Part shown: positions 370 through 39,562 of the stretch, in pieces
How the letters are laid out: each line of letters starts with the position of its first letter
Position numbering within the stretch: the first letter of the stretch is position 1
Assembly (NCBI GenBank): GCA_964406495.1
Contig: CAYOSB010000002.1
Coordinates: forward strand, 5,044 to 69,043
Origin: an uncultured Bacteroidaceae bacterium
GTDB taxonomy: Bacteria; Bacteroidota; Bacteroidia; Bacteroidales; GCA-2748055
Direction of reading: 5' to 3'
Length of the DNA: 64,000 bases
Translations under genes and position numbers: made by a program
Notes under the pieces: generated by a model
Told to the model about the DNA's origin: nothing
Seen by the model: the letters and a program-made list of their open reading frames with translations, nothing else
Databases searched by the model: none

Positions 370-1290
370 TTAAAAAACGTCCAGTTCAAACTCCACATAA
401 ATGGGATTGTGATCCGACGGATACACCCCATCCACGTTGTAATCTACCTCCTCGTAGCGCAGCACCTCCACGGGTCCTTTATAGAGTATCCAGTCAATTT
501 CGTTGTGTTCCCCGGAGGTATCATACAGTTGATTGCTGTCTTCGGCATCGTCTTCTCCAACCAGGACCTTATATGGGGGTGACCCCGGACGGCAATTGAA
601 ATCGCCCATCAGGAAAACAGGCCGCTCGGGGGTCCATTCCCCAAACCGGCTGAGTGCATTGATCCGGTCCAGGATGAGTTTGGATGCATTCAGCCGGGCC
701 AGCGCCTCGTTGCGGCTGTTGAAGTAATGGGTATTAAATACGTAAAATTCACGGGTATGCTCCCAATGTCCCCTGTAATCCTCAGGATAAGGTCCCCGCT
801 TTCCTTCTGCAGGAATGTTAAGCAGTGCAAGCCTTACCCACGTAACCATGCGCGGGTTTACCTCTGGTCCGCTTCCAATAATCTCAGGGGTCTTCGACAG
901 TTGAAAACTATGCAATTCGCGCAACCGGAACTTATCACGCTTGAAGAAGATCGCCATATGTTCATCATCGTCACCTCCTTGTCTGCCCTCTCCCACTACG
1001 ACATATTCCGGGAGATGTTCCTGCAGGTAATCGACCTGTTCCTTCAACCCTTCCTGGGTTCCAATGATATCCGGATCATACCGGCGGATCAAATCGAGTT
1101 GCATTTCTCTCCTGACTTCCCAGGCAGGTTCGAAAGTAGGACTGGCAAATTTCAAGTTGTAGGTCATCAACGTGAGCACCGTGGGATCCGCAGTGGCATC
1201 TTTGCCCTGAGCTGGTAATGCATTCGTCGCCAGCGACATGATCATGATCAGCAGGAGTGTTCTTTTTATCTTGAATGCTGTTTGGTTCAT
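370..1290 (-). CDS. Secreted endonuclease/exonuclease/phosphatase (EEP) family protein
   Basis: The 316 aa ORF carries EEP hallmarks: LTLMTYNLKF near the N-terminus, DPDIIGTQEG, GDFN, and SDHNPIYVEFELD at the C-terminus. The start is more likely the second Met (1290), which gives signal peptide MNQTAFKIKRTLLLIMIMSLATNALPAQG. The alternative start is 1320. Confidence 0.85.
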   Translation of the reverse strand: MNQTAFKIKRTLLLIMIMSLATNALPAQGKDATADPTVLTLMTYNLKFASPTFEPAWEVRREMQLDLIRRYDPDIIGTQEGLKEQVDYLQEHLPEYVVVGEGRQGGDDDEHMAIFFKRDKFRLRELHSFQLSKTPEIIGSGPEVNPRMVTWVRLALLNIPAEGKRGPYPEDYRGHWEHTREFYVFNTHYFNSRNEALARLNASKLILDRINALSRFGEWTPERPVFLMGDFNCRPGSPPYKVLVGEDDAEDSNQLYDTSGEHNEIDWILYKGPVEVLRYEEVDYNVDGVYPSDHNPIYVEFELDVF

Positions 1291-1487
1291 AGTGAAAATC
1301 TTTATTTTGAATTTATTCATTGATCATTTTTCAGGCTGTAATCGCTTATGCAGACCATAATTTATGATTCATTGGAATAATAATCTCTTAATATGTGATT
1401 AACAGTTGGATGTTCTCAGGATGAACTCCAAATTAAAATCAATATCATCGGGCACTATTCCCGCGTTGTACTTCCTGGTGACAGTTG

Positions 1488-3047
1488 CTAATTTGCACTG
1501 ATAAAATCTATCTGTGGCCAGGGCTGGTCAGCGGCATCATTCGTCTGCGGTGCACCCGACGTACTGCGCCCCTCTGTGATATACTGCACCAGCAGAACCC
1601 TGAGTTCATTCACGATATCCGGGTATTCCGATTGCGAGTTCACCGTTTCCCCGGGATCATTGCGCAGGTTATACAATTGCACTGGCGGGAGCGTTTCAAG
1701 TACATCATCGTTTCTACCCGGACGCGGATAACTCCAACCACCGGAACCGGGACACATGATCAATTTCCAGTCCCCTTTCCTGATCGCAAACTCTCCTCGT
1801 ATGGAATGGTGTACCGTAGCTTCCCTGAAAGGTGCTTCGGATTCCATCCCTTCAAACAGGGATAGCAGACTGTAACTGTCCTCTCCCTCTGAATCATCCA
1901 GTGCAGTGCCGGCAATTTCCGCACAGGTGGCCATCAGGTCGGTGGTGCAGATGACTTCATCGGATACCGTGCCCGCTTCAATTTTTTCAGGCCACCGGGC
2001 GATGAATGGGACCCTGTGTCCCCCTTCAAAAATGTCTGCTTTATGACCGCGGTAGATATAGCTTGGATGGTGCCCTTTTTCTGCGAGCAATTCAAAATCA
2101 GCTTCGGGCGAGCAACCATTGTCACTGGTGAAAATCACCAGGGTATTCTTATCGATGCCCGCATCTTCGATCGACTGTAATAACTGACCCATATAATGGT
2201 CCACCATCATCACGAAATCCCCGTAAGGATTCAGCCCGCTCTTCCCCTGCCATTCAGCAGTGGGCAAAATCGGCGTATGCGGGGAAGGAAGTGCCAGGTA
2301 TAAGAAGAAAGGCTGCTGTTCCCTGGCACGCGATTGCACATAAGAAATGGACTTCCGGAAAAAATTCGGGGTCACATCCTCATGGACAAAGTCCGGGGCA
2401 GTCAATCCTTTCCTCCACCAGGTATATTTACCCTTGTCAACTGTAACAGTATCGGGCACAGCTGTTGGTATTTCATTCTCCACATACACATAGGGAGGCA
2501 TGTCTAACGATCCTGAATGACCATATGCATATGAAAATCCAAGGTCGTTGGGTGAATGTGAAATGAGTGCTGAGAAATCTATCGGCTTGCTTTTATTCCC
2601 GGCATCAGAGGCTCCTGCATCCCTATGTGCCCAATTCCATCCAAGGTGCCATTTGCCGATAAATGCAGTATGGTACCCCTGGTCCTGCAGTATCGATGCG
2701 ACCGTACTTCTGTCGAGTGGGATCAGGGCCTCTGACCTTCCGTTCAGCACGCCTCTTTTCAGCCGTGACCGCCAGTTATACCGACCTGTCAGGAGGCCAT
2801 ACCGGGTAGGAGTGCAAACAGAAGAGGATGTATGTGCATCAGTGAACCGCATCCCCTCCTTTGCCATCTGGTCGATGTTGGGTGTGGGAATCTTGCCATT
2901 TGTATTAAATGATGAAATGTCACCATATCCAAGATCATCGGCCAGGACCACAATAATGTTTGGAGGTGAAGCGGCACCAGGTCCTGTGTTGCACCCCGAA
3001 AGCAGCAATGCAAGAAATAATCCTGTCAGCAGCGAAATTTTTTTCAT
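1488..3047 (-). CDS. Arylsulfatase (Cys-type, family S1)
   Basis: 519 aa. Lipoprotein signal LLLSGCN. Motifs PNIIVVLADDLGYGD, SSSVCTPTRYGLLTGRYNWRS and GKWHLG. Confidence 0.95.
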   Translation of the reverse strand: MKKISLLTGLFLALLLSGCNTGPGAASPPNIIVVLADDLGYGDISSFNTNGKIPTPNIDQMAKEGMRFTDAHTSSSVCTPTRYGLLTGRYNWRSRLKRGVLNGRSEALIPLDRSTVASILQDQGYHTAFIGKWHLGWNWAHRDAGASDAGNKSKPIDFSALISHSPNDLGFSYAYGHSGSLDMPPYVYVENEIPTAVPDTVTVDKGKYTWWRKGLTAPDFVHEDVTPNFFRKSISYVQSRAREQQPFFLYLALPSPHTPILPTAEWQGKSGLNPYGDFVMMVDHYMGQLLQSIEDAGIDKNTLVIFTSDNGCSPEADFELLAEKGHHPSYIYRGHKADIFEGGHRVPFIARWPEKIEAGTVSDEVICTTDLMATCAEIAGTALDDSEGEDSYSLLSLFEGMESEAPFREATVHHSIRGEFAIRKGDWKLIMCPGSGGWSYPRPGRNDDVLETLPPVQLYNLRNDPGETVNSQSEYPDIVNELRVLLVQYITEGRSTSGAPQTNDAADQPWPQIDFISAN

Positions 3048-3326
3048 AATACCATTAGTTGATTTGAACTGTTAAAAGTTGTACCATCTGATTGTTGGAT
3101 GATCTCCCTCCGGCATTATCCCGTAAAAGATCAAAGCCGTAAAAAATTCAATATACCACAAAGTGAATAATCATTGATTAAAAATTAATTAAATTTTCAC
3201 CTGTTGATTCAATAAATAATTGTTTCTTTTACTTATGTGATTTCACTTATTAAAATTACCAATTTAAAAGTAACCTGGATGAAATCCTCTCCAATATTCT
3301 CAGGTATTTATTTGAAACAAAGACTA

Positions 3327-4469
3327 ATGAACATGAAAAAGATCATTTCCATCTTGCTGTTGATCGTCGTTTTTACCATCGTCAGCACCAGCCAGTCCGC
3401 AATGCAGCCAGAGGAGGAATTGGCAAACAAGTACCAGGAACCTGTTAAGATTGGTGTGGCAGGGTTGTCACACTCGCACGTGGTTCCGCTCCTCAGGAAC
3501 CTTGAGCGCACTGATATTCAGATTGTCGGCATTGCTGAACCTGACCGGGACCTTGCGCAGCGATACGCGGAGCGGTTCGGGTTTGACATGTCAATGGTAT
3601 ACGATTCACTGGAAAAGATGCTCGATGCAACCCAACCTGAAGGGGTACTCACCTTCACTTCCATCTACGATCATTTAAAGGTAGTTGAGACCTGTGCGCC
3701 CCGGGGGATCCACGTGATGGTGGAAAAGCCGCTTGCCGTTTCCGTTGCCCACGCGGAACAGATCTCCGCGCTTGCTGATCAACACGATATCATGGTCCTG
3801 ACCAACTACGAAACATCATGGTATCCTTCGGTGCACCTGGGAAAGAAAATGATCAACGACGGCGACCTGGGTGTGTTGAGAAAGGTCATCGTTTACGATG
3901 GTCACTCCGGACCGAAGGAAATAGGCGTGAACCAGGAATTTCTCGACTGGCTCACAGATCCCGTGCTCAATGGCGGGGGAGCAGTGATGGACTTTGGCTG
4001 CTACGGGGCGGATCTGATCACCTGGATACTTGAAGGAGAAAAACCTTTGAGTGTTTCTGCAAGTCTGAAGCAGTATAAACCTGGGGTATATCCCAAAGTG
4101 GACGATGATGCCACCATCATTTTATCCTACCCGGATATGGAAGGGGTGATCCATGCATCCTGGAACTGGCCCTTCAGCCGGAAGGATATGCACATCTATG
4201 GCTCCACCGGCTATGTATTTCAGGATGATCCGGAAACGATCAGGTACCGCCTGGAGCGAAAATCAAAAGAACAGGTAAAAAAAGTCGCAGCAACAACAAT
4301 TCCTTATAACGATCCATTTACCTGGTTTTCAGATATAATCCGCGGTAAAGCAACCGTTCAACCGACAGGCCTGGCATCATTAGAGATCAACAAGATCGTC
4401 GTTGAGATTCTTGAGGCAGCAAAAGAAAGCAGTAAAACAGGTGAGAAAGTGTATCTCAACCTGCAATAA
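3327..4469 (+). CDS. Secreted Gfo/Idh/MocA-family NAD(P) oxidoreductase
   Basis: The ORF track begins at 3237, but the ATG at 3327 gives a clean signal peptide, MNMKKIISILLLIVVFTIVSTSQS. A Rossmann start KIGVAGLSHSHV and the motif MVEKPLA are typical of the GFO/IDH/MocA family. Confidence 0.85.
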   Translation: MNMKKIISILLLIVVFTIVSTSQSAMQPEEELANKYQEPVKIGVAGLSHSHVVPLLRNLERTDIQIVGIAEPDRDLAQRYAERFGFDMSMVYDSLEKMLDATQPEGVLTFTSIYDHLKVVETCAPRGIHVMVEKPLAVSVAHAEQISALADQHDIMVLTNYETSWYPSVHLGKKMINDGDLGVLRKVIVYDGHSGPKEIGVNQEFLDWLTDPVLNGGGAVMDFGCYGADLITWILEGEKPLSVSASLKQYKPGVYPKVDDDATIILSYPDMEGVIHASWNWPFSRKDMHIYGSTGYVFQDDPETIRYRLERKSKEQVKKVAATTIPYNDPFTWFSDIIRGKATVQPTGLASLEINKIVVEILEAAKESSKTGEKVYLNLQ

Positions 4470-4703
4470 TTTATTTTATGGCCATGTGTCAAACCCTGGT
4501 TTATTGGACCAGAAATTCCTGGTTAATGGGTAGTAAATTACTTGCAAAAATCCCTTTCACCGCATAATCATTTGGAAGGCATGTAATTTATAATTTTCAC
4601 CAGCGTAAATGACCTTTAAAAGGTCCAATCATGAAACAAGGATCAATGACTTGCGGTATTTACAGCTTTTCCTGTATTGCGCTATTTTATTAGTTTAAAA
4701 TAT

Positions 4704-4711
4704 TATATTTG
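4704..4711 (+). promoter_or_regulatory. Candidate Bacteroidota -7 promoter box (TATATTTG, matches TAnnTTTG)
   Basis: Exact match to the TAnnTTTG consensus, 27 nt upstream of the ATG at 4738, in an AT-rich intergenic region. There is no transcript evidence. Confidence 0.3.
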
Positions 4712-4737
4712 AACAAGGAACTCACTACTACTATTGA

Positions 4738-7272
4738 ATGAACAGGAAGCGCATCATATTGGTGATCTTAACAATGTCATTTTTCTGTCATTCAATTAGT
4801 TATTCACAAAAATCCGGGTTGCAGTTCTCCGGCCACGAAGTCCCGCTTGATAAAAGAACAGGATTGAATTTAACACCTGATCAACCCATTCGATTTGGTT
4901 CTGTTGCAAAACTAACATTTGAACTTAAGTTCGAACCCGACCGTCATTCCTATTTTGGATACATTTTCAGGGCTATTCTTGATGACAAAAATATCGACTT
5001 GATCTATACTACGATCCCTGTCGAAGGAAATAACTTTCACCTGGTGATCGGAGAAAATATCAGCAATATATCATTCTCATTTCCGCTTGATGAAATAACA
5101 ACCCAATGGGTTCCTTTTGAACTCACCATTAATAAGAAGTCAGATCAGATCGAATTAAAAGTAGGGGATAATGCTTTCCAGGATGAATTTTCATCCAGTA
5201 GTCGAAGATCGAAGCTTCTGATATTTTTCGGTGCGCACAGCTACGATCAATTCACATCTACGGATCTGCCAAATATGAATATCCGGGATATTGAATTTTT
5301 TGATAGTGGAAAAAGAAAATACCACTGGCCCCTGAATCAGTATGAAGGTAACAGGGTAAATGAAGTAATCGCAAATTTTAACGGGCAGGTACAAAATCCC
5401 TTCTGGCTGAGAAGTTTCCATCAAATATGGAAATTGACTGATGAGATCTATTTCCAGGGGGAGATTAAGTATGCTTATGATGCAATCAACAACGAGATCC
5501 GGATAATTCAGGAAGATTCAATGTATGCTTATCGCATAGGAAGCAAGCGATTGCGTTCATTTTCTCCGGGACATGATTTCTCTCCGGACGACCTGTACCA
5601 GCTGATCTATGACAGCAAAGACAACAGTTTCATATATTACTCCCTGGACCGGAATATAAAGTGTCTGCTTTCCGCACCCTCCTCCTGCGAAGAGGGTATA
5701 AATCAAAACCTTGGTCAACCAAAACACTGGCATCACAGCAGGATTGTAAATCCTGAGAATGGTGTACTGTACACTTTTGGGGGGTATGGACAGCTTACCT
5801 ATAAAAACAAGGTATTCTCTTTTAATGATTCTGCCGGGCAGTGGACGCCTGTCTCCTACGAAGGGACGTTTTATCCGCGATACCTGGCTGGATTGGGGTA
5901 CCATGAGAAAAACAAAAAAGCATATATCCTGGGAGGGTATGGCAGCAAGCAGGGCAAGCAAGCCATCAACCCGGGGTATTATTTTGACCTTCTGACCTAT
6001 TCATTTGAGGAAAACCGGTTTGAAACCCTCACAGAATTCTCAGATCATAGCAATGATTTCTGCTTCTCCAATTCCCTGCACATAGACACAGCTTCAAATA
6101 CTTTATATGGACTGAAGTTTTCAAAATATGAAGCGACCCCACAGGTACAAGCTGTAGCGGTATCACTGGATGATTATGAAATGACCGAGGTGGGAAATAC
6201 CTTTAGTTTTCCTTTTCTTGACATCAATTCAACAATTGATTTATTCTATGACAGTCTAAACAATCAACTTGTATCTGTCAACACCTTTTATGAAAATGGC
6301 AGGACAAAATTAACCATACATCAAATTGCCTATCCACCCATTTCAGAAACCGCCAGGATTGAAACTTATGAGCAAAGTTATCTCACTTGGATTATTCTTG
6401 CTGTATTGATCATCATCCTGGTAGCGGTATATTTCATCATCAGAAAACAAAAGAAAAAGAAAATAACTGGCAACGACTCAATTGTACATGAATATGTTTT
6501 AGATGAGAATGGTACGGAAATAATAAAACTCGTTGATGCTGAGCCCAAACCCGGATCGGTCATTATATTTGGTGGCTTTCAGATTATCGATGCAAAGGGA
6601 AAAGATATTACCTCCTCCTTCACCCCACTGCTCAAAGGATTGTTCTTGTATATCATGATCGCTTCCCTGCGGCACGGTAAGGGAGTTTCATCGAAATCAA
6701 TCGATGAGGTATTCTGGCTTGATAAATCAAAGCAGTCGGCACGCAATAACCGGTCGGTAAACATTTTAAAATTAAAAACGCTGCTCCAGAATGTCGGTGA
6801 CTGCGAAATTTCCAAAGATACAGGATACTGGAAATTCACTTTTAATCCTTCATCAGTATTCATTGACTTTTATGAATACCTGCAGATTATCAGGAAAGGG
6901 AGGCTTAAATCGAAAGAAGACATGATTAATCTCTTGAAGATTATTCACCGGGGTCCTGCTTTGCAAAATATAAATGCAGACTGGCTTGATGATTTTAAAT
7001 CTGAATTATCAAACGAGATCATTGATAATGTGCTGGAATTTATACATCAGCAAGAAGATAAGATAGAACCTGAGTACATCATCCAGATCACGAACTGCAT
7101 ATTTTTCTTTGATATGATCAATGAAGAAGCGATGATCTACAAATGCAAGATGCTCGTGAAGCTCGGTAAACATAGCCTTGCCAAAAATGCATACGAAAAA
7201 TTTGTCAGGGAATTCAAGGTGCTGTATGACGAAGATTATGACAAAAGTTTTTCTGATGTCCTGAAATCGTAG
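4738..7272 (+). CDS. Single-pass membrane transcriptional regulator: extracytoplasmic LamG-like plus Kelch-like sensor region, TM helix, cytoplasmic SARP-like winged-helix plus BTAD domain
   Basis: 844 aa.
- Signal peptide: MNRKRIILVILTMSFFCHSISYSQ.
- Kelch-like GG motifs: LYTFGGYGQ, AYILGGYGS.
- TM segment: LTWIILAVLIIILVAVYFII, followed by RKQKKKK.
- C-terminal pattern: FGGFQIIDAKGKDIT...LLKGLFLYIMI...GVSSKSIDEVFWLD...ARNNRSVNILKLKTLL...GYWKF...IDFYEY, then IHRGPAL...DW and a helical BTAD-like tail. This matches the OmpR/SARP wHTH plus BTAD layout. Confidence 0.7.
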   Translation: MNRKRIILVILTMSFFCHSISYSQKSGLQFSGHEVPLDKRTGLNLTPDQPIRFGSVAKLTFELKFEPDRHSYFGYIFRAILDDKNIDLIYTTIPVEGNNFHLVIGENISNISFSFPLDEITTQWVPFELTINKKSDQIELKVGDNAFQDEFSSSSRRSKLLIFFGAHSYDQFTSTDLPNMNIRDIEFFDSGKRKYHWPLNQYEGNRVNEVIANFNGQVQNPFWLRSFHQIWKLTDEIYFQGEIKYAYDAINNEIRIIQEDSMYAYRIGSKRLRSFSPGHDFSPDDLYQLIYDSKDNSFIYYSLDRNIKCLLSAPSSCEEGINQNLGQPKHWHHSRIVNPENGVLYTFGGYGQLTYKNKVFSFNDSAGQWTPVSYEGTFYPRYLAGLGYHEKNKKAYILGGYGSKQGKQAINPGYYFDLLTYSFEENRFETLTEFSDHSNDFCFSNSLHIDTASNTLYGLKFSKYEATPQVQAVAVSLDDYEMTEVGNTFSFPFLDINSTIDLFYDSLNNQLVSVNTFYENGRTKLTIHQIAYPPISETARIETYEQSYLTWIILAVLIIILVAVYFIIRKQKKKKITGNDSIVHEYVLDENGTEIIKLVDAEPKPGSVIIFGGFQIIDAKGKDITSSFTPLLKGLFLYIMIASLRHGKGVSSKSIDEVFWLDKSKQSARNNRSVNILKLKTLLQNVGDCEISKDTGYWKFTFNPSSVFIDFYEYLQIIRKGRLKSKEDMINLLKIIHRGPALQNINADWLDDFKSELSNEIIDNVLEFIHQQEDKIEPEYIIQITNCIFFFDMINEEAMIYKCKMLVKLGKHSLAKNAYEKFVREFKVLYDEDYDKSFSDVLKS

Positions 7273-8948: not shown

Positions 8949-11861
8949 TCACTGCCGGATGATCACCAACTCTGAATGTCTTGCACCGGCGGTACCGGCA
9001 GAAAGAATATAGGTTCCGGGATTGATTCCGGTCAGGGGCAATTGTATCACTGCCCTGCCCGGCTGCAGTCGCTGCTCTGTAAAATCCCCGCCAATAATAC
9101 GCCCGCTGAGGTCCCTCAACGCTACATGTATCACATCCGCCTGGTGCATTTCGATGTCAATGGTGAGCGCAGTTTGTGCCGGATTGGGGTACACCTGGAA
9201 CTTCTCCTCCCCAAATCGTTTGTTTTGCGTATATACTCCTTCTTCCATATAGCTGGCGGCGATCAACGCGGGACCATCTCCCATGGTCAGGCTGGTGGAC
9301 GATGCATTCATATCTGCAATCACCGGATTCCCCGATTGGATGATCCACTGATCGAATTTCATACCTGAAGGCGGACGATCGGCAGCAATGGTGACCTGGT
9401 GACCTTCCGGATAGTTTCCTCCCCCGTCACCCCCATCAACCAGCAGGGTATACAGCGGGCCTACTTCGGTATCGATCAATTGGATGGCATCGATACGGGA
9501 AGTAACAGGACCAGATTTAAAGCGATAGATCCGGAACCAGTTAATTGCACTAAGGTCGGGAGACCCCGATTTGTTTGCCTCACTGGTTTTCAGCGTAACA
9601 TAATTCCAGCCGTCGGTTAATCCCGTCAGGTTCCAGCTATACTCGTTCTGGTCGGGTCTGCCTGAGCTGCCGATCTCCACCTGGTTGCTAGATTCATGGA
9701 CCGAGACATCCGAGACATAGTACCAGAAGCTCAGTTCAGTATTTGCTTCTGTGCCATAACAATTATACGGCGTGGTAAAAATCTTTTTAAACTCATCCGT
9801 ACTTGCTGCAGAGAATTCAATACACCCGGTACCCTGTTGCTGATCTGTCTCATTCAGACTCAGTCCGGCAGAAGATTTCCACCCGTCACTGCTGTCACAG
9901 TCATCCAGGTAACTTCCCGGATTGCCACTGATCACCTGCTTCAGTTCCGATTTCTCACCGAACCATTCTTCGCCATCCTGCACCATCTGCCACTGAAAAT
10001 TCAACAACCCGTCCGCATCCGGCACGATTACGTCGAATGTGAAGGTTTTCTCCTCCCCGGGTTCAATGCTGTCCCCTTCGGCAAGATGCACCCGGGTGCG
10101 TCCCCAGGTCTTGTTATCGGCAGGCCCCTGGCTACCCAGCCTGAATTGACCGAGGGGCGTCCAGGAAGTAGTTCCCGTGTTTTTCATGGTAATACTTACC
10201 GTGATCGTATCGCCTGCAACCAATTCAGGGACATCCTGCGCAACGAATGCAGCATCGTTCCCTGTTTCCCTGCCCCCGTTCCGCAAGTCGCGTTGCGAAA
10301 CGCTGTAATAATGGATGGAATTCTTTCCTGCCAGCCACTCCAGCAAGCAGGCCCGCAGTTCCTCGGCTTTATCCAGGTATTGATCACGGTCGGGATTGCT
10401 GCCCAGCAGGTTATTCATTTCATGGGGATCGGTATTCAGATCATACATGGCATTGATCACATCCGATTTGATAGTATAGGGAATCATCAGTTTCCAACCA
10501 TCTTTGACCACCATGTAGTTTGGATTATTCTCCCTGTCCCATTCTGTCACGACATACTGACCATGGATGGTATCGGTTCCTTCGATCAGTCCCCGAAGAC
10601 TTGTACCTTCTGAAGCAGGTCCGGACACATCCAGGTAGTCAAGGATCGTCGGATAAAGATCTGTAAGGGAAACATAGCCTTCGACCGTGGTGGCAGGCTG
10701 AATCTCCCCGGGGTTCTTTATCAGCAGTGGAATGTGTGCAGATTCTTCAAGAAACACGTTTTTCTCTCGCATGCCATGGGCACCCAGCATTTCACCGTGA
10801 TCACTTACAAAAATGACCATGGTCTTGTCTGCAATACCAAGTGAATCCAGTTGATCAAGGATTTTTCCCACATAGTGATCAATCTCTGAAACCAGCCCAT
10901 AATATTCCGAAATCATGTATTTGATCTTGTCCGGATCCGCATATTCTGTCCGGTTTTGCCTGCTGTTGGAGCGCACATACGGTGAATTCTGCATGTCATC
11001 GTCAATACTCACCGGCGGCACCATTTCCTCCACCGGGTACATGCCGTACCAGGGTTCAGGAGCAAGCATAGGGGAATGCGGGAAATGAAAGGAACAGGTA
11101 ATACTGAAGGTGGAATCCTTCAGCCGCTCGATCGCCTCCATCGCCTGCCCGGCCTGGAAGGCAGTCATGGTATGCTCCTGGTCGAGTGTCAGTTCGCCGT
11201 GTTGATCGGGCTGTGAATGCTTTAATCCCTGGTTTTGCAATTCCTGCCATGTTTTACCAAAATAGCGGTCCAGGGGATTGGCGATATAGGGCCACTTTGA
11301 CATTCCATCTATAAACTCACCCGCGCCCGGGGCTGGGGGAGAACCCACTTTTGCTAGGTAGTCCCGCCAGATGTGACTCTGTCCGCCGGGTCCGAACACC
11401 GAAGCCCCGTTCCCTGCAACCTGCACTGGGTTTTCGTATACTTCAGCACGTTCTGACAGGGCATGCCATTTCCCGTAGTATTCGCATCGATAGCCATTTT
11501 CTGACAGCACCTCATCAAATGTCGGCATGGTCATTACCTCGCTCTCATCGTAATAATACGTTTGCCCGTTTGAGTAAACGCCGGTGCCCTCAACGGAGAA
11601 ACCGGTAAGCATGGAAGAGCGTGCCGGTCCGCAAACAGCGCACGGTGTATAGGCATTCCTAAAATAAGCGCCCTCCTCCGCAAGACGGTCCAGGTTGGGT
11701 GTCTGAATGACATCATTCCCTGCATATCCCAGTGCATCGTAGCGTTGCTGGTCTGTAATTATAAATAACAGGTTCTTTTTTTTCGGTTGCTGGGAGATAG
11801 CGTTCTGGAGGAATAATAACCCCAGAAAGATAAATAGGTACCGCGACATATCAATGTTCAT
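8949..11861 (-). CDS. Multidomain sulfatase with Ig-like/CBM-like modules and a T9SS C-terminal sorting domain
   Basis: 970 aa.
- N-terminal sulfatase: NLLFIITDQQRYD, TPCAVCGPARSSMLTG, GKWH.
- Ig-like block: TITVSITMKNTGTTSWTP...FQWQMVQDGEEWFGE.
- Jelly-roll/CBM-like block, then a YTLLVDGGDGGG...FDQW repeat-type block.
- C-terminal FQVYPNPAQTALTIDIE...GTYIL...VIIRQ, typical of a Por/T9SS sorting domain. Confidence 0.9.
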   Translation of the reverse strand: MNIDMSRYLFIFLGLLFLQNAISQQPKKKNLLFIITDQQRYDALGYAGNDVIQTPNLDRLAEEGAYFRNAYTPCAVCGPARSSMLTGFSVEGTGVYSNGQTYYYDESEVMTMPTFDEVLSENGYRCEYYGKWHALSERAEVYENPVQVAGNGASVFGPGGQSHIWRDYLAKVGSPPAPGAGEFIDGMSKWPYIANPLDRYFGKTWQELQNQGLKHSQPDQHGELTLDQEHTMTAFQAGQAMEAIERLKDSTFSITCSFHFPHSPMLAPEPWYGMYPVEEMVPPVSIDDDMQNSPYVRSNSRQNRTEYADPDKIKYMISEYYGLVSEIDHYVGKILDQLDSLGIADKTMVIFVSDHGEMLGAHGMREKNVFLEESAHIPLLIKNPGEIQPATTVEGYVSLTDLYPTILDYLDVSGPASEGTSLRGLIEGTDTIHGQYVVTEWDRENNPNYMVVKDGWKLMIPYTIKSDVINAMYDLNTDPHEMNNLLGSNPDRDQYLDKAEELRACLLEWLAGKNSIHYYSVSQRDLRNGGRETGNDAAFVAQDVPELVAGDTITVSITMKNTGTTSWTPLGQFRLGSQGPADNKTWGRTRVHLAEGDSIEPGEEKTFTFDVIVPDADGLLNFQWQMVQDGEEWFGEKSELKQVISGNPGSYLDDCDSSDGWKSSAGLSLNETDQQQGTGCIEFSAASTDEFKKIFTTPYNCYGTEANTELSFWYYVSDVSVHESSNQVEIGSSGRPDQNEYSWNLTGLTDGWNYVTLKTSEANKSGSPDLSAINWFRIYRFKSGPVTSRIDAIQLIDTEVGPLYTLLVDGGDGGGNYPEGHQVTIAADRPPSGMKFDQWIIQSGNPVIADMNASSTSLTMGDGPALIAASYMEEGVYTQNKRFGEEKFQVYPNPAQTALTIDIEMHQADVIHVALRDLSGRIIGGDFTEQRLQPGRAVIQLPLTGINPGTYILSAGTAGARHSELVIIRQ

Positions 11862-11880: not shown

Positions 11881-11909
11881 GTTACCATTAACTGTGGGTT
11901 AATGGTAAC
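11881..11909. promoter_or_regulatory. Perfect 12-bp inverted repeat GTTACCATTAAC-(5 nt)-GTTAATGGTAAC
   Basis: Read directly from the sequence. It sits 19 nt upstream of the minus-strand start codon at 11861 and about 170 nt downstream of the GH92-like stop at 12077. It could be an operator or a 5'-UTR/terminator hairpin. The function is unknown. Confidence 0.3.
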
Positions 11910-12076
11910 TTAAAGTAAAATTTATGCACCACTGTGTCTAATTTTTTTCGGCTTTTCTTTGCCTGATCCTGCAGGAACATCTTCCCGGACCGACTAAATA
12001 TTCACACCAGCGATAAAGCTGAGGCCAGCGTACTGAACAGACCGGCCATGCGATTTCTATAGTCTTCCGGCAGAAC

Positions 12077-14401
12077 TTATACTTCCGGCAGGATAGTCTC
12101 TGTACCCCACTCCTTATTCGGCAGCTCCCCCAACCTGAGTTCCAGTGTGGCGCCGGACATTACCTGCTTATGCGTGATAAACGGACTGAATATCTCCTCA
12201 CCATTGATAAATGCCTGCTGAATATACTTTTTCGTTTTGCTCGCTCCATCGGCGACCACTGTAAACGTATTGCCATTGGTAAGGTCAATACTCACTTTTT
12301 CGAAAATGGGACTTGTAATGGTGTAAAATGGAATTCCGGGAGTTACCGGGTAGATCCCCATCGCCGAGAACACAACAAAGGCCGTCATTCCACCCCCGTC
12401 CTCATCACCTGGTACACCGAATATATTGTCCTTGAACCAAACATCGAGCAGGAACCGTGTTTTCTTCTGTGTTTTCCAGGGTGCGCCGAAATAGTTGAAC
12501 AGGTAAGGGATGTGGAAGGAGGGCTCATTTCCCATGCTGAACTGTCCAACCATACCTGTAGAGTTCGCGCCATGCACATAAAATTCACGCTTGCGCATCC
12601 CCAATGGCTCCCGGAACAACTGGTCCAGGCGTGCCTCAGCTGCTTCCTTGCCTCCAAGCAATGCCGTCAGTCCCTCTATATCGTGCTGCACATCCCAGGC
12701 ATAGGTCCATCCATTGTTCTCGTCGTAGTAATTTCGGTACCCCGGTCCGCCATCTTTCCTGGGATCGATATCGATCCAATTTCCTTCATCGTCCTTCGGC
12801 ATAAAAAGGCGTTCCCCCGCATGCCATAGATTTTTATAATCCAGTGCCTTTTCAGCATATATCTCTTCCTCCTGCTGCTTTCCCAGTTCATCTGCCAGTT
12901 CCGACAGCGCCCAGAAATCATAGCTGATCCCAAGGGTAACAGCCACCGGTTGTCGTTTTTCGAAACCATCCATCTGCGGTTCAGTCTCTTCTTCCCCCGG
13001 TCGCAATGAGGGGAAATACCCATGTTCGTGATAGAAATCATCGATCGGACGCCGCGGTGTTCCCTGTCTCCAGGGAATGAATGTGCCTTCCACCAGGTTC
13101 TTTTTGATCCCCTCATAAGCCAGCTCCACGTTGTAATCCCGCAGTCCTTTCCGATAGCCGTCAATGAATATGGCAGCGGAATGATAGGCATTCATGCACA
13201 TGTGGTTCCCATGCACCTGTGGAAAAGTAGGCATCCAGCCACTCTGTTCATACATCAGGGTATATGAGTTGAGCATATCATTTTCCATTTCAGGATCCAG
13301 GATGGTGCGCAGGGGGTGCGTGGCCAGGTAGGTATCCCATACCCAGTCATCCACGTAGAAGGGGCGGTCGCTCTCGTGTACTTTTCCATCATACCCGCTG
13401 TAATACCTGCCATACTCATTGATATCCACCATTCGTTCGTAGGTACGGTAGAGCGAAGTATAAAATGTCCTTTTCTGGGCCAGTGTTCCACCTTCCACCT
13501 GGATCTGCCCGACTGTCTGCTCCCAGGTCTCCTTTCCCTGCGCAACCAGTGCATCAAAATGCACATGCTCCAGTTCCTGCTCGCAATTATAACGTGCCTG
13601 GTCAGCACTGATATACGATACAGCATATTTGAGTAATATATTTTCCGGCGCTTCCGGCGGGAGGCTGATCGCCAGGCGACCGGAAGAGCTGTCCAGTTCC
13701 AGGTCACCAACCTGCTGCCCCGCTTCATCGGTAAGCACTGCATGAATAAATACATCCATTTCCCTGCGTACCGAGAAGATTCCACGCGGTGTGTATATGA
13801 TCTTCTCCTGCAAGCGTATTGTGCCGTCTTCATTGGCGGCTGCAGCCATATGATGCGAACCGTTGAATAAAAGATTCCTTTTGTCATTTTCGGAGAATTC
13901 TATCTTGTATATACCACTCCTGGCACCCGGTGTGAAACTCAACCTGATATCATCCTCGATCAGGTAGGTGGAATAGAGCCAGGGGTGCACGGTTTCAAGG
14001 TCATGATCGATCACCATTTTTTTTCGCCAGGAATCCCGCGTTATTTCGCCGTTGACCACCTTCATCTGGAACAGTCCTTTGTTCCTGTGTGCCGCAACCT
14101 GGAGCGGCCAGGCCTCTACCTGGTCGGAGATGTAGTCCGATTTCACCGGGTACATTCGAAGCATCTTGTTGGGCAGATGGAATGTCGGGTAGGTGGGAAC
14201 GAGAAAACGAGACACATTCCCAATGGTTGGATCAATATATTGGGTGTTGTCCTCCTTACCTGCGATACTGTTTTCATTGGTGCAGGAGTAAGCTACCAGG
14301 GTGAGCATACCTATCATAAACAGGATTCCGAGTTTGGATGCAACCCTTTGAGAACTCATAAAATCAACTTGCGGATATTGTTGTTGGATGGAATGATTCA
14401 T
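12077..14401 (-). CDS. GH92-like glycoside hydrolase (alpha-mannosidase family), divergent subgroup
   Basis: 774 aa. Motifs FYTSLYRTYERM, DDWVWDTY, NEPSFHIPYLFNYFGAPWKTQ and GDEDGGGMTAFVVFSAMGIYPVTPG. Lipoprotein-like LVAYSCTN. The true start may be the internal Met at 14359. Confidence 0.9.
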   Translation of the reverse strand: MNHSIQQQYPQVDFMSSQRVASKLGILFMIGMLTLVAYSCTNENSIAGKEDNTQYIDPTIGNVSRFLVPTYPTFHLPNKMLRMYPVKSDYISDQVEAWPLQVAAHRNKGLFQMKVVNGEITRDSWRKKMVIDHDLETVHPWLYSTYLIEDDIRLSFTPGARSGIYKIEFSENDKRNLLFNGSHHMAAAANEDGTIRLQEKIIYTPRGIFSVRREMDVFIHAVLTDEAGQQVGDLELDSSSGRLAISLPPEAPENILLKYAVSYISADQARYNCEQELEHVHFDALVAQGKETWEQTVGQIQVEGGTLAQKRTFYTSLYRTYERMVDINEYGRYYSGYDGKVHESDRPFYVDDWVWDTYLATHPLRTILDPEMENDMLNSYTLMYEQSGWMPTFPQVHGNHMCMNAYHSAAIFIDGYRKGLRDYNVELAYEGIKKNLVEGTFIPWRQGTPRRPIDDFYHEHGYFPSLRPGEEETEPQMDGFEKRQPVAVTLGISYDFWALSELADELGKQQEEEIYAEKALDYKNLWHAGERLFMPKDDEGNWIDIDPRKDGGPGYRNYYDENNGWTYAWDVQHDIEGLTALLGGKEAAEARLDQLFREPLGMRKREFYVHGANSTGMVGQFSMGNEPSFHIPYLFNYFGAPWKTQKKTRFLLDVWFKDNIFGVPGDEDGGGMTAFVVFSAMGIYPVTPGIPFYTITSPIFEKVSIDLTNGNTFTVVADGASKTKKYIQQAFINGEEIFSPFITHKQVMSGATLELRLGELPNKEWGTETILPEV

Positions 14402-14754
14402 GGTGTCAGATGTGATTTATTCACAAAATAAACAAGGAGGAATAATAATTGATTAAAGTTTGATTAATAAGTTTGATAAAACTTTATTTTTAATTGAACT
14501 CAGCCCTCCTGGAATTTTTTTTACTTCTATACATCTAATACACTATTAACTCACTTCAATGACGCGAATTATGTGGTTTAAAACAAGATCAAAATACTTC
14601 TGGTAGTTATCTCCTTTTCAATAACATTTTATAGTATTGATACAGACTCGTATTTCATGACATTAAGCTTTTATTAATGAACTGTTATTTAGATTACCTT
14701 AAATTGGATTCAGATATTATTTCGAGCCTGACTCATTTATCAAAAAAGCAAAAT

Positions 14755-15987
14755 ATGAAAAAGTTCCATTGCCTTGTCATCACAGCGTTATTCCTCTCAA
14801 ATTTCGCGATCGCAGGAGGTCCGAAAAGCATCAGGGATTTCGATGTACTTCCCGAAAACAGTCCCGCTGAAAACAAAATGAATCTCCAGAAAGCCATTGA
14901 CTGGGCATCGCCGAGAGGGGCAGCACTTTTTATTGAACCTTCAGAAACGCCTTATCCTGTTGATGGTGGACTGGTTCTGAAGAAGAACGTATCCCTGGTG
15001 GGTGTGCACGGTCCGACCCACAGGGGAACGGTGCATCCTGATAAAAAACAACCGGTGGGCAGCGTGTTCAGCATTACAGACCAGGACAACCCTTTTATCA
15101 CCGTGGAAACAGGCACACAGCTCAAAGGAATCCAGTTCTGGTATCCGGAACAGACGATCAGGGATCCGGAGGCCATCATCCCCTACCCTGCCACTGTCCA
15201 GGTTTCCAAGACCAGCAGGGCCCAGGGAATATTTATGTCCTGCCTTACTTTTTACGGAGAATACCTCGCGTTCGATTTCAATGCGACACGCGGACTGGCA
15301 TGTGAACTCATGACCTTCGAACATTGTTACGGGTATCCGCTGAGCGGCGAATTCATCCGGATCGACTACTGTTACGATGTTCCAAGGATCCTGCATTGTC
15401 ATGTCAATCCGGCTGCACAACGCTACATCGGCGGTCAATACAGCAAGGAGGTCGTGGATGCGGTCATCGCCAAAAAGACATTCGCCTACACGATCAATCA
15501 TACCGACAATGCACAGATCATCGACCTGTTTACTTTCGGAACCTATGGCGGCATTCTCCTGGGCGGAGAGTCCTACGGTCAGCTCACCAATTTCAACTTC
15601 GATTGTGTGGCGGTAGGTATCCATAAAAAAGGCAACAATACCAAGAACCGGAACTGGCAGATCGCCCAGGGATCCATCATCGCCAATACCGGGGAGGACC
15701 TGGAAAACATCCACCCGATCATTATCGAGGGACAGGGGCATACTGCACTCTCCAATGTTGAAGCTTTCTCCGGTGGAAATGGAGCCCTGACCACTGTACC
15801 TGAGAATGAGTCGTGGGACTACATGTTGATTCGCGGCGACCAGAAATGCACTGTATCGGTATGGGGAGCCCGGATGCGCAACTACGCCTCGGATGAGCCG
15901 GTCACGATTGAGAATAAAAAAGCAGTGGTCCAGTTTACTGCCTGCATCGATAAGGATGAGGAGCTTTTTAACCTGACTGTAAAATAA
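14755..15987 (+). CDS. Secreted right-handed beta-helix protein (pectate-lyase-3 / GH28-GH55-related fold), function unknown
   Basis: Start chosen at the ATG at 14755, giving MKKFHCLVITALFLSNFAIAGG. The N-terminal pattern SIRDFDVLPENSP...NLQKAIDWASPRGAALFIEPSETPYPVDGGLVLKKNVSLVG resembles the Pectate_lyase_3 entry motif. The assignment is by resemblance only. Confidence 0.65.
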   Translation: MKKFHCLVITALFLSNFAIAGGPKSIRDFDVLPENSPAENKMNLQKAIDWASPRGAALFIEPSETPYPVDGGLVLKKNVSLVGVHGPTHRGTVHPDKKQPVGSVFSITDQDNPFITVETGTQLKGIQFWYPEQTIRDPEAIIPYPATVQVSKTSRAQGIFMSCLTFYGEYLAFDFNATRGLACELMTFEHCYGYPLSGEFIRIDYCYDVPRILHCHVNPAAQRYIGGQYSKEVVDAVIAKKTFAYTINHTDNAQIIDLFTFGTYGGILLGGESYGQLTNFNFDCVAVGIHKKGNNTKNRNWQIAQGSIIANTGEDLENIHPIIIEGQGHTALSNVEAFSGGNGALTTVPENESWDYMLIRGDQKCTVSVWGARMRNYASDEPVTIENKKAVVQFTACIDKDEELFNLTVK

Positions 15988-16158
15988 TTGCCAGCCGAAA
16001 TGCTATAATGCTCGTTCTCCTGGCAATTTGAAATTTTGAACATGATAAAGGAAGGATAATCAACCTAAGCAAATAATTGTTGAATTTTTCATTATTCAAT
16101 GGGCACCCAACAATTCTTGAAATCCTCTTATCAACTCCGGAAGAAAATTAAAAATCAG

Positions 16159-25714: not shown

Positions 25715-26938
25715 TTATTTCACCCTGTACAGCCATAAATCATCGTTATAGCGGATATACAGGATGCCTTCGTGAATCACTGGATGCGCAAATGCGAAGG
25801 TTGCCTGTGCTGCAGGGATCTGGAAGCGGCTGACGATATCAAATCCTTCTTTGGATGGATGCGCGAGCGCTACTTCGCCCCTGTCGGAATACATATAAAA
25901 TTTATCATCCGCCAGTATAAATGAGCCTCGTTGCAAATCGCGGGTTGTAAAGACAGTCTCTCCAGTTTCGTAATCAACACCTGCCCACAATTTCCTTTTA
26001 TCAGAGACGCCGAAAACTGTTCCTTCATACCAAATCAGTCCGCTTATTTTGGCATCCAGATCAGTATTCCGGTATATGGTATCAAGCAGTTGCTCGCCCT
26101 CAACAATTCTGAACAGGGTTGTTCCTTCGCCATAACCGGAGGAGTAGAACAATCTGCCATTATCATAAATGGGTGGCAGGGCATGGTTGAAATGCCTATC
26201 TGTCAGGGGATGCCTGACCCGCACATCGCCGTTATCCGGATCAATAAGCAGAATATAATTCGCCGTGTTCAGAAGTACAAGGTCCTTATTATTGTGGTTA
26301 ATGAGTACAGGAGAGCAATAAGAGTTGACTGTACTGTCGATATCAGCCTTCCAGATAAGTTCCCCACTCATTTTATTGAGTGCAATGAAATTTGCTCCGG
26401 GACCACCTGCGGTAAAGAATATCTTCTCTTCATAAATCAGGGGCGACTCTGTATATCCCCATTTTATTTTCGGAGCATTGTATTGTTCCATGAGATCCAC
26501 GCGCCAGAATTCTTCCCCGGTACGGGCATTTAAACAAACCACATCGCCCATCGAAGCAGCATAATACAAGCGATTCCCCTCCAGGGTCGGTGTGCTCCGA
26601 GAACCCGTATATTTGTAGTTGAATTCAGGGCCGATTTCAGTTTTCCAGACGAGGTTGTATTGTGAGTCGAAATGGAACACGTAGCCAATGGAGTCGATCA
26701 TTCCCGCCACATAAATACCATCTTCATTCACGGCAGGTGCCGCATACCCCGAACCTATCCCGGTAACCGTATGTACCAATTCAGGTCCGGATTCAGGCCA
26801 GCTGTCCAGCAATCCTGTTTCATTATAGACCCCGTTCCTGTGAGGACCTCCGAACTGCGTGATCTGGGCAATATTATCAGAATGAGTAGTGAGTATCGCG
26901 ACTAATACTGCAATGGCCTTCAGATTGATGTGCTTCAT
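25715..26938 (-). CDS. Secreted single PQQ-like beta-propeller protein
   Basis: 407 aa with a signal peptide. Propeller-blade repeats include NRLYYAASMGDVVCLNARTGEEFWRV and EKIFFTAGGPGANFIALNKMSGELIWKA. Confidence 0.85.
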   Translation of the reverse strand: MKHINLKAIAVLVAILTTHSDNIAQITQFGGPHRNGVYNETGLLDSWPESGPELVHTVTGIGSGYAAPAVNEDGIYVAGMIDSIGYVFHFDSQYNLVWKTEIGPEFNYKYTGSRSTPTLEGNRLYYAASMGDVVCLNARTGEEFWRVDLMEQYNAPKIKWGYTESPLIYEEKIFFTAGGPGANFIALNKMSGELIWKADIDSTVNSYCSPVLINHNNKDLVLLNTANYILLIDPDNGDVRVRHPLTDRHFNHALPPIYDNGRLFYSSGYGEGTTLFRIVEGEQLLDTIYRNTDLDAKISGLIWYEGTVFGVSDKRKLWAGVDYETGETVFTTRDLQRGSFILADDKFYMYSDRGEVALAHPSKEGFDIVSRFQIPAAQATFAFAHPVIHEGILYIRYNDDLWLYRVK

Positions 26939-35986: not shown

Positions 35987-36258
35987 TGGGTCAAAAAGAT
36001 ATATTTTTACTTGTTCAAACCATTTATTAGAATCTGCAGAAACCATAAAGAAAAAGGTTGATGTGTTATTTAACTCATCTCCGGTCAATTTATAATTATC
36101 CTGTAATTTAATGCGGATGTTCTGACAAGATGTTTGTCGAAAGCAAGATTATTGCTAATTCAGGCTCAACTTGCCAATCACCCTATACCCTGTCTCATTT
36201 TTTCATATTTCTCAGTGTTAAAAACACTTTTCAGCTTATCCTGATAACAAGTTCATTA

Positions 36259-36498
36259 CTAATCGCTATAATTACCTGTTGTAAGCTGACTGCGTGACAG
36301 GTTAATTTTGAAATACTCTTTACCATCATCCAGCATCAATCGGTAAGTTACTTCAGGGTCTCTTTTCCTTGTCATTGCTTTTTCCGGTTGAATCCTGTTT
36401 TGTTTTGTTTTGTTTTGAGCCATCACAGTCATGTTCATCACGGACATGGACAGTAAAACAAATAAAATCAGCCTTAAATTTCGATGATCAGACTTCAT
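36259..36498 (-). CDS. Small hypothetical secreted protein (79 aa)
   Basis: ORF with a plausible signal peptide, NLRLILFVLLSMSVMNMTVMAQ. No family was recognised. It contains a (TGTTT)x4 tract at 36396-36417. The coding status is uncertain. Confidence 0.3.
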   Translation of the reverse strand: MKSDHRNLRLILFVLLSMSVMNMTVMAQNKTKQNRIQPEKAMTRKRDPEVTYRLMLDDGKEYFKINLSRSQLTTGNYSD

Positions 36499-36851
36499 AA
36501 TTGTGCTGATTTAATCTTATTAAAAAATTAGTACTCAAGGGGTTAATTTTTACTAAATTTTCTCAAATTGTGGATGCTACGCTAACGCGTTTCTATTTTT
36601 CCGGTACCAGGCTCAATAATGTTGAATCGCCTGTCTGATAATGGAGTTGCTTCGCTTCAGGAAGTTCAGAATAACATCCCTGAAGCATCACGATAAAAAG
36701 CATTCCAACGGACAGCAACACATCGAAAAACTTCACAAAGGGAAGCAGTCCATGCAATGATACACCTTTACGTAATATTTGATCAATTGAGTGGATGCTT
36801 TCCATATTGTTTACAGGTCAAGTTATTATATGCAGGTAAATGATGTACCTC

Positions 36852-39467: not shown

Positions 39468-39562
39468 TCTTCTTTTCAGTATCTGTTTTTAATTTAAATC
39501 ACATTGTTTAAATAAATGGGGCGCATGCCTGCGGGATGTCACCAGCATCCCGTCACGGCGCA

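Follow-up and report, generated by a model that had tools for sequence, protein, structure and literature searches.

What regulator could control a cluster of sulfatase and glycoside hydrolase genes that contains only one regulator-like gene? The window analyzed here is a 64-kb stretch (64,000 nucleotides) of contig CAYOSB010000002.1, from an uncultured Bacteroidaceae bacterium. The gene in question occupies 4738–7272 on the plus strand as an ATG-to-stop open reading frame (ORF) of 844 amino acids, stop codon included in the coordinates. A sequence-only reading of this DNA had divided the protein into a signal peptide, a large ectodomain, one transmembrane (TM) helix and a cytoplasmic part resembling SARP/OmpR-type regulators, and all four parts are found in the ORF. 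On the basis of its predicted fold, its predicted topology and a DNA repeat conserved beside its homologues, we consider it likely that the protein is a type-I single-pass inner-membrane one-component transcription activator with a predicted SARP operator and regulon. The proposed coupling of a sensor outside to a DNA-binding module inside is supported by these same three lines of evidence, the operator being a candidate one.

Predicted Fold of the Cytoplasmic Module

The cytoplasmic part comprises 276 residues. A model built with a 24-sequence alignment (A1) has a predicted local distance difference test score (pLDDT) of 87.3 and a predicted template modeling score of 0.81, and shows, in order, 28 disordered residues, beta-strands, three helices of which the third is long, a beta-hairpin wing and seven helices. 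This is the arrangement of a SARP, in which a winged helix-turn-helix (wHTH; beta-sheet, three helices and wing) is followed directly by an all-helical bacterial transcriptional activator (BTA) domain. A Foldseek search of the PDB with this model returns six matches at E ≤ 1e-3, and all are SARPs: AfsR, in transcription-initiation complexes (8hvr and 8k60), and EmbR (2fez and 2ff4). The next match is at E = 0.19. The AfsR and EmbR alignments span 250–259 columns with TM-scores of 0.53–0.60, so that the wHTH and the BTA domain (BTAD) are covered together. The predicted model and the Foldseek matches place the OmpR/SARP-type wHTH at aa 606–702 (6553–6843, plus strand) and the BTAD-like domain, with its seven model helices inside the AfsR/EmbR alignments, at aa 710–844 (6865–7269, plus strand). 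The most conserved stretch of the module is the predicted recognition helix, S-A-R-N-N-R-S-V-N-I-L-K-L-K, in which module residues A100, N102, N103 and V106 are invariant. The assignment of a SARP/OmpR wHTH plus BTAD to the cytoplasmic part is thus borne out by a predicted fold that matches AfsR and EmbR alone at this threshold.

Predicted Membrane Topology and Ectodomain

The single TM helix, LTWIILAVLIIILVAVYFII, lies at aa 549–568 (6382–6441, plus strand) with a hydropathy peak of 3.11, and its position recurs in 115 full-length homologues, each with one helix at about aa 520–585. It is followed by a basic stop-transfer segment, RKQKKKK, and a low-confidence juxtamembrane linker (together aa 569–605; 6442–6552, plus strand); these 37 residues are poorly conserved, and pLDDT is below 50 for model residues 1–28. 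Across the 115 homologues, Lys plus Arg average 5.4 in the 15 residues after the helix versus 2.1 in the 15 residues before it. By the positive-inside rule, this places the C-terminus in the cytoplasm. The charge asymmetry, together with the N-terminal signal peptide, leads to a predicted type-I orientation, with the LamG-like and Kelch domains in the periplasm and the SARP module in the cytoplasm. The sequence-only reading had named a missing wHTH/BTAD fold and an outside C-terminus as results that would speak against it; the computation gives instead a SARP fold and a C-terminus predicted to lie inside.

The N-terminus has the features of a signal peptide (aa 1–23; 4738–4806, plus strand): MNRKR, a hydrophobic core that recurs as an N-terminal hydropathy peak in the family, and SYS|Q, with cleavage expected before Q24. 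A mature start of the form Q-x-Y-G-L-x-F is conserved among homologues directly after this segment. The ectodomain that follows has ∼525 residues (526 by count). Its N-terminal 239 mature residues are modeled by AlphaFold2, with alignment A2, as an all-beta sandwich at pLDDT 90.1, and Foldseek finds 64 PDB matches to it at E ≤ 1e-3, headed by neurexin LNS, laminin LG, pentraxins and legume lectins (best E-values 2e-6 for neurexin LNS2 and 5e-6 for laminin LG5). On this basis a concanavalin-A-type jelly roll of the LamG/LNS/pentraxin kind, predicted to be periplasmic, is assigned to approximately aa 24–200 (4807–5337, plus strand). At the level of sequence, a family profile finds no match to the jelly roll among PDB sequences, and the Pfam model Laminin_G_3 is absent from the window protein and reaches only a sub-threshold E = 0.018 in one of 24 diverse homologues. 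The jelly-roll-like region of the earlier reading therefore stands by predicted fold and fails by the Laminin_G_3 sequence model.

The Kelch-type beta-propeller, also predicted to be periplasmic, is placed by Pfam and by phmmer against PDB sequences at approximately aa 240–548 (5455–6381, plus strand; boundaries approximate). Kelch_2 (25.7 bits, cutoff 21.3) and Kelch_1 (23.4 bits, cutoff 20.1) both exceed their Pfam cutoffs at aa 340–373, propeller families match aa 331–433 with E-values of 3e-8 to 4e-7, and phmmer with aa 240–548 recovers a designed six-blade Kelch protein at 1.3e-17 and KLHL12 at 3e-5. With GG doublets at aa 348 and 399, the Kelch-type GG repeats noted from sequence are confirmed. 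Single-sequence Pfam and NCBIfam scans of the whole regulator detect Kelch alone, and neither finds an enzyme domain beyond this generic propeller.

A Candidate Operator across the Family

What is new in this analysis is a conserved candidate operator of the family. In many genera, the spacer between the regulator stop codon and the next gene contains three, sometimes four, (A/G)TTAAT direct repeats with an 11-bp period, as in Mucilaginibacter (ATTAATcaaat-ATTAATagttc-ATTAAG), a Bacteroidaceae metagenome-assembled genome (GTTAATcattt-ATTAATtcttt-TTTAAT) and Larkinella (ATTAAGggttt-ATTAAGatttt-TTTAAG). Three hexamers phased at period 11 with a score of at least 15/18 are present in 46 of 57 such spacers. 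The count drops to 0–6 spacers at control periods of 8–10, 12–14 and 16 and to 0.3 (maximum 2) in dinucleotide shuffles. At periods 7 and 15 it is 25 and 12, values which we read as internal echoes of the repeat. The unit derived from 41 distinct sites is ATTAAT-(C/G)-A-(A/T)-T-T, with positions 1–8 informative and positions 9–11 loose.

A scan of the 1.37 Mb of survey loci finds 144 sites of at least 16 bits, none of them inside an ORF, and a full shuffle yields none. The sites occur in 16 of 22 taxonomic groups, and the genes that they face are GH92 (35), GH3 (23), SusC (20), GH99-like (9), GH95 (4), the regulator itself (3) and unlabelled ORFs (40). The Bacteroidetes −7 consensus is TAnnTTTG. 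In 31 of 46 sites a box of this kind begins exactly 9 or 10 nt beyond the third hexamer, and each of the other offsets from 0 to 33 is found 0–1 times; the repeats would therefore sit in place of the −33 element. With these offsets measured, the downstream TTTG element is read as the −7 box, and an interpretation as a −33 box was dropped.

SARP target promoters contain direct repeats 11 or 22 bp apart; in the case of AfsR, 8 bp separate the 3′ repeat from the −10 element, each protomer touches the first 8 bp of an 11-bp repeat, and SARP domains that are monomers in the absence of DNA line up side by side on it over the −35 region (PMC10936776). The unit structure, phasing and promoter position of the candidate operator agree with these rules, which supports the SARP assignment independently of the fold evidence. 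By computation, then, the 11-bp repeats and the fixed short distance to a −10-type box are present, and binding of the regulator to them is a prediction.

Predicted Sites in the Window

To score the window, a 33-bp matrix was built only from other genomes. It yields seven hits of at least 14 bits at five locations, against 0.025 in shuffles (best shuffle 14.4 bits). When only the 5,986 bp of intergenic DNA are scanned for phased hexamers, period 11 scores 10 times and the other periods from 6 to 18 score 0–4 times; the average over 200 shuffles is 0.49, the maximum 4. All but one of the five locations fall inside 10 kb of the regulator (P about 0.025). The density of sites is ∼1 per 9.5 kb in regulator loci, compared with one in the distal 47 kb of the window and none in the 37 kb of two other loci (L088 and L089) taken together. 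A matrix that omits the Mucilaginibacter sites recovers all five locations and adds a marginal one.

The strongest predicted operator, ATTAATCAAAC-TTTAATCAATT-ATTATTCCTCC (14436–14468, minus strand; 24.3 bits), lies 35 bp upstream of a GH92 gene (12077–14401, minus strand), with a −7-like box, TTATTTTG, 9 nt after the third hexamer. Tandem Repeats Finder (TRF) also detects this site as a period-11 repeat. The TRF repeat had been considered as a "TTGATTAA" motif together with a TAAATCAA repeat at 50291–50323, a description dropped for the ATTAAT register after comparison with the family spacers. A second predicted operator, ATTAAGCTTTT-ATTAATGAACT-GTTATTTAGAT (14662–14694, plus strand; 21.7 bits), has its box TAAATTGG at offset 10 and is followed by a secreted 410-aa protein (14755–15987, plus strand) and then a GH92 gene (16099–18396, plus strand). 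The secreted protein, with signal peptide MKKFHCLVITALFLSNFAIA, likely starts at 14755, 61 bp downstream of the site, and its annotated start at 14677 probably lies 26 codons too far upstream. The protein lies between two GH92 genes and has no Pfam match.

The predicted operator TTTAATTAATT-TTTAATCAATG-ATTATTCACTT (3161–3193, minus strand; 22.6 bits) is 114 bp upstream of a sulfatase gene (1488–3047, minus strand), in a divergent region shared with a GFO oxidoreductase gene (3237–4469, plus strand). A 70%-identical orthologue locus (L087) keeps the order sulfatase (minus), GFO (plus), regulator (plus), and its syntenic sulfatase/GFO spacer contains a 22.6-bit site with an identical ATTATTCC third repeat. 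The same locus has a second site, of 22.9 bits, before a sulfatase gene that is followed by a GH99-like gene. The fourth predicted operator, GTTAATCACAT-ATTAAGAGATT-ATTATTCCAAT (1371–1403, minus strand), scores 20.5 bits, or 20.6 bits with the matrix lacking Mucilaginibacter, and lies 51 bp upstream of an Exo_endo_phos-family gene (370–1320, minus strand). As neither this gene nor that of the secreted 410-aa protein has homologues in 89 related loci, the two add no comparative support.

The two remaining candidates are weaker. One, at 50247–50279 (minus strand), scores 17.1 bits (18.0 bits without Mucilaginibacter) at the doubtful 5′ end of a GFO ORF (48730–50298, minus strand), and is less certain because its perfect TATATTTG box is off-register, at offset 16. 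The other is marginal: four phased hexamers at 11882–11925 (minus strand), 26–64 bp upstream of a sulfatase gene with a type-IX secretion (T9SS) tail (8949–11861, minus strand), have a hexamer-phase score of 14/18 and reach 14.4 bits only with the matrix lacking Mucilaginibacter. Autoregulation is unsupported, since 4470–4737 contains no site of at least 14 bits and only three of the 144 family sites face the regulator gene. Finally, a 15-bp repeat array that had been suggested as a target is unlike the ATTAAT operator and has no matrix hit, and that suggestion is not upheld. The array consists of ∼12 tandem copies of TTCGTGATATGTCCG at 59990–60174, which also score at 30- and 45-bp periods, in the spacer between a sulfatase gene (58381–59958, minus strand) and a PF06439 protein gene (60250–61800, minus strand).

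Genomic Setting of the Regulator Gene

The window encodes at least 15 sulfatases, three GH92 proteins, one GH95 protein, GFO/IDH/MocA oxidoreductases and PF06439 proteins, and both of its ends are sulfatase fragments. No SusC or SusD homologue is found in the 64 kb, and the locus is therefore better described as a CAZyme/sulfatase (sulfatase/GH92/GH95) cluster than as a canonical polysaccharide utilization locus (PUL). A Pfam scan of the other ORFs of at least 200 aa, of the small ORFs in the larger gaps and of the window ends gives no regulator-type domain, in keeping with the view that this is the only regulator-like gene of the window. The gene is also, as had been noted, one of few on the plus strand (5 of 34) and AT-rich, with the lowest GC content of all window genes (0.395 versus 0.480 ± 0.022). 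Its GC content at third codon positions (0.438) is inside the range of the other genes, which indicates that the AT-richness comes mostly from amino-acid composition and makes horizontal transfer a weak explanation for it.

Family Distribution and Gene Neighbourhoods

A word index returns 293 homologues, nearly all of 830–880 aa; full-length homologues range from 830 to 906 aa. Searched exhaustively by phmmer, the cytoplasmic part retrieves 1,290 clusters at 50% identity, 1,073 of them at E ≤ 1e-10; the large canonical SARP family is not reached. In these clusters the module invariably forms the extreme C-terminus, and most of the short matches are truncated gene calls, with starts within the TM helix or the ectodomain. 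A degenerate peptide pattern finds 421 relatives in species-representative genomes, spanning Sphingobacteriia, Chitinophagia, Cytophagia, Saprospiria and Bacteroidia. Annotation of the family is inconsistent and depends on the pipeline: NCBI and UniRef names include "galactose oxidase", "Kelch repeat-containing protein", "Kelch repeat protein" and "hypothetical protein", and many JGI entries are called "DNA-binding SARP family transcriptional activator" or "SARP family activator".

The neighbourhoods point to glycan utilization. Five distant homologues with Pfam-labelled neighbours are all in glycan-utilization clusters, which hold SusC/SusD/DUF3823, GH92, GH95, GH99-like, GH43 and GH3 genes. 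Among 67 loci with at least 8 kb of flanking DNA, 63 carry such markers (GH92, GH99-like, GH3, GH95, GH43 or SusC/D) beside the gene. GH92 is found in 45 of these loci, GH99-like in 46, GH3 in 29 and SusC in 27 (within 10 kb), and GH92 is the very next same-strand downstream gene in 26. The GH99-like genes are distant GH99 relatives, one of them above the Pfam cutoff.

Several loci have features of their own. Tandem pairs of paralogous regulators, or two copies on one contig, are found in L006 (10001–15151), L022, L063 and L008/L010 (same contig); the paralogues could act as heteromers or differ in ligand specificity. In Pedobacter and Larkinella loci (L005, 15411–17639; L006, L022, L036, L041 and L043), the first gene after the regulator, behind an operator site, encodes a DUF7133 plus cytochrome-c protein of ∼740 aa, a redox protein that is unexpected in a glycan regulon. 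The L088 and L089 regulators, which are 51–52% identical to the window protein, follow SusC/SusD, DUF5627 and Big_5/T9SS genes.

Proposed Mechanism

In the mechanism that we propose, a cleavable signal peptide would export ∼525 residues, the jelly roll and the Kelch propeller, to the periplasm and leave ∼276 residues in the cytoplasm. The SARP modules would bind the three 11-bp direct repeats, as the conserved DNA suggests, and the bound protomers would, as in AfsR, substitute for upstream promoter recognition and recruit RNA polymerase. The position of the operator over the −33 region suggests activation, not repression, and would fit the way SARPs activate, through contacts with RNA polymerase and sigma. 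The predicted regulon in the window would comprise the GH92 gene at 12077–14401, the operon of 14755–15987 with the GH92 gene at 16099–18396, the sulfatase gene at 1488–3047 and the phosphatase-family gene at 370–1320, perhaps the divergent GFO oxidoreductase gene, and possibly the sulfatase gene at 8949–11861 and the GFO gene at 48730. From gene context, the ectodomain may bind a periplasmic oligosaccharide derived from a mannose-containing glycan, in view of the recurrent GH92 and GH99-like genes, and one that would be sulfated in this organism, in view of the sulfatases. Canonical SARP domains stay monomeric in the absence of DNA. If ligand made the ectodomains cluster, the tethered modules would therefore become locally concentrated, which would favour cooperative filling of the three repeats. 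Extended to the phylum, the proposal is that transmembrane SARPs couple mannose-oligosaccharide sensing to transcription, with clustering loading three protomers on repeats that replace the −33 element; we put this forward tentatively, as an idea with somewhat less than an even chance of being right.

Strength of the Assignment and Alternative Readings

A number of results weigh against the assignment of a SARP-type activator with this operator. Trans_reg_C (PF00486) has no match in the window protein even at E ≤ 10 and reaches E = 0.053 in one of 24 members; BTAD (PF03704) likewise has no match in the window protein and reaches E = 0.016 in one of 24. Among PDB sequences, the best match to a family profile of the cytoplasmic part is a PhoB-family wHTH at E = 0.62, an alignment that does fall on the expected recognition-helix motif, and phmmer with the cytoplasmic part gives nothing significant there. 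Thus, of the profile models proposed from sequence, Kelch is detected and Trans_reg_C, BTAD and Laminin_G_3 are not at their thresholds, and the wHTH/BTAD and LamG assignments are supported by modeled fold and not by profile. With regard to the operator, every locus scanned was chosen for encoding the regulator, which builds co-occurrence into the sample, and Mucilaginibacter and Pedobacter account for 50 of the 80 survey loci. Six of the 22 taxonomic groups have no site in the DNA scanned, and L088 and L089 have no ATTAAT-type site of at least 13 bits in 15–22 kb, so that either their targets are outside the scanned DNA or they form a subgroup with a different operator. ATTAAT is palindromic, and the orientation of a site therefore depends on the weaker spacer positions and the −7 box. 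The best predicted target in the window does not lie next to the regulator gene, and sites occur in 5–6 of ∼33 intergenic regions, such that most of the sulfatase cluster would need other control. DNA binding, activation as opposed to repression, ligand and topology are all predictions.

Could the repeats belong to something else? The way the loci were selected, the AT-richness of the repeats and of the promoters that contain them, and the groups and loci without sites would each fit an upstream promoter element that is generic and AT-rich, or a site bound by some other factor common to such glycan loci, with the regulator acting on a different target. This is nonetheless very unlikely, as tandem binding of the OmpR/SARP type is marked specifically by the strict 11-bp phasing, three units, 8 + 3 unit structure and fixed 9–10 nt to the −7 box (PMC10936776), the density of sites is lower in the distal window and in L088 and L089 than in the regulator loci at large, and the nearly invariant recognition helix fits a common operator. 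The same conservation, highest in the predicted recognition helix, argues against a protein that binds no DNA at all, namely a TM-anchored periplasmic lectin or enzyme whose helical cytoplasmic tail serves as a scaffold. Such a protein would suit the "galactose oxidase" and "Kelch repeat-containing protein" names and the detection of Kelch alone by Pfam, and BTAD/TPR-like helices often mediate protein contacts. We find it extremely improbable, given that the module matches complete SARP units, winged helix included, and nothing else, that a SARP-type operator is conserved beside the gene, and that no enzyme domain is matched beyond the Kelch propeller.

A further alternative keeps the membrane-anchored SARP-like regulator and changes how it acts: regulated proteolysis near or within the membrane, triggered by the binding or the loss of ligand, would free a soluble wHTH-BTAD fragment to act on the ATTAAT repeats, and the tethered form would be inactive. 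Regulated intramembrane proteolysis is established for other single-pass regulators, the poorly conserved 37-residue linker, modeled as disordered, could be a cleavage site, and a few short entries consist of the cytoplasmic module alone (for example P0177, 254 aa). Against this, truncation of the gene call is evident for most short entries, the surveyed loci have no conserved protease gene beside the regulator, and ToxR and CadC are membrane-tethered wHTH regulators able to act without release. We regard release by proteolysis as unlikely.

Comparison with Known Systems

Like the SARP domain of AfsR, ActII-ORF4, DnrI and EmbR of M. tuberculosis, the regulator has an OmpR-type winged helix followed by an all-helical BTA domain, and the operator rules predicted here are the same: 11-bp repeats with ∼8 bp conserved, at a fixed distance to a −10-type box. 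The differences are also clear. Canonical SARPs are soluble cytoplasmic proteins of Actinomycetota, whereas this regulator is membrane-anchored, occurs in Bacteroidota and has a large periplasmic sensor. Extra domains of canonical SARPs are C-terminal and cytoplasmic (NOD/TPR in AfsR, FHA in EmbR), whereas here the SARP module is itself C-terminal, and, unlike SARPs, the family is below Pfam sequence thresholds. Compared with SARP sites, the predicted operator has three (sometimes four) repeats, an AT-rich palindromic core and a −33/−7 type promoter, and the predicted targets are glycan-degradation genes instead of antibiotic clusters.

In ToxR, CadC and TcpP, one TM helix joins a periplasmic sensor, without a phosphorelay, to an OmpR-type winged helix that has to find its DNA at the membrane. 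The description of this regulator as ToxR-like is apt for the concept of a membrane-tethered wHTH regulator and misses its polarity: ToxR-type proteins have a cytoplasmic N-terminal wHTH, a C-terminal sensor and no signal peptide, and here the sensor is N-terminal and the DNA-binding module C-terminal. They also have no BTAD, and their sensor domains are unrelated to those of the regulator. Hybrid two-component systems (HTCS) also use periplasmic beta-propellers as sensors; in contrast, the propeller of the regulator is Kelch-type and preceded by a LamG-like domain, and its output is SARP-type. Pfam and NCBIfam find no histidine-kinase, receiver or AraC domain in the regulator, and hence no phosphorelay, and its cytoplasmic part is fully accounted for by the SARP fold. 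What SusR and HTCS would share with it is the niche, inner-membrane sensing of a periplasmic oligosaccharide and control of adjacent glycan genes (SusR: PMC7641319).

The sequence-only reading had held the regulator to be none of the usual PUL regulator types. This is correct with respect to HTCS, SusR, ECF and GntR/LacI, but a passage of PMC7641319, citing Terrapon 2015, lists "SARP-OmpR" proteins among the predicted PUL regulator families. These are probably the same family, SARP/OmpR-like proteins with genes in or beside PULs, and the JGI names agree. None of the literature searched characterises a member or describes its topology, sensor domains, operator or regulon. The gene is, then, an ordinary member of a catalogued but uncharacterised family, to which the present analysis adds fold-level confirmation, a family-wide link to GH92 and GH99-like genes, and a predicted operator and regulon.

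Other Features of the Window

GFO/IDH/MocA proteins are encoded at 3237–4469, 29620–30990 and 48730–50298, PF06439 proteins at 48002–48691, 52884–53606 and 60250–61800, and AKR and ADH proteins at 38295–40594. Genes for several NAD-dependent oxidoreductases and for members of the "3-keto-disaccharide hydrolase" family lie scattered among those for sulfatases, GH92 and GH95, which hints at an oxidative (3-keto-glycoside) cleavage route alongside the hydrolases. The sulfatase at 8949–11861 (minus strand) has 970 aa with Ig-like/InlB-repeat domains and a type-IX-secretion C-terminal sorting domain, and is thus expected to be secreted or surface-attached. Three large PQQ/BamB-like beta-propeller proteins are encoded in a row at 18504–21233, 22920–25592 and 25715–26938 (minus strand). 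One of them has a weak match to a lambda-carrageenase propeller, and they may be uncharacterised glycan-active enzymes. The longest gene-free gap of the window, 763 bp at 36089–36851, has no ORF that matches a family.

Implications

What is understood of glycan-locus control in Bacteroidota concerns mainly HTCS, SusR, ECF sigma/anti-sigma pairs and a small number of cytoplasmic repressors; outside gut Bacteroides, most glycan loci have no known regulator or DNA site. The family described here would offer a compact, one-protein pathway from sensor to promoter. As its predicted operator can be read from sequence, regulons could be predicted from genomes alone: for soil Sphingobacteriia, Chitinophagia and Cytophagia these would include GH92, GH99-like, GH3, GH95 and SusC/D genes, and for marine-type Bacteroidia sulfatase/GH92 clusters. 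The culturable Pedobacter heparinus, Mucilaginibacter spp. and Sphingobacterium have clear orthologues with strong sites, which makes the hypothesis directly testable. The family is also a natural test of whether SARP activation transfers to a phylum with promoters and a primary sigma factor unlike those of Streptomyces. If the proposal is true, the SARP "sigma-adaptation" known from Actinomycetota would also operate with the unusual primary sigma factor and −33/−7 promoters of Bacteroidota, and PUL control would gain in these regulators a fifth mechanistic type, one whose operator code can be read.

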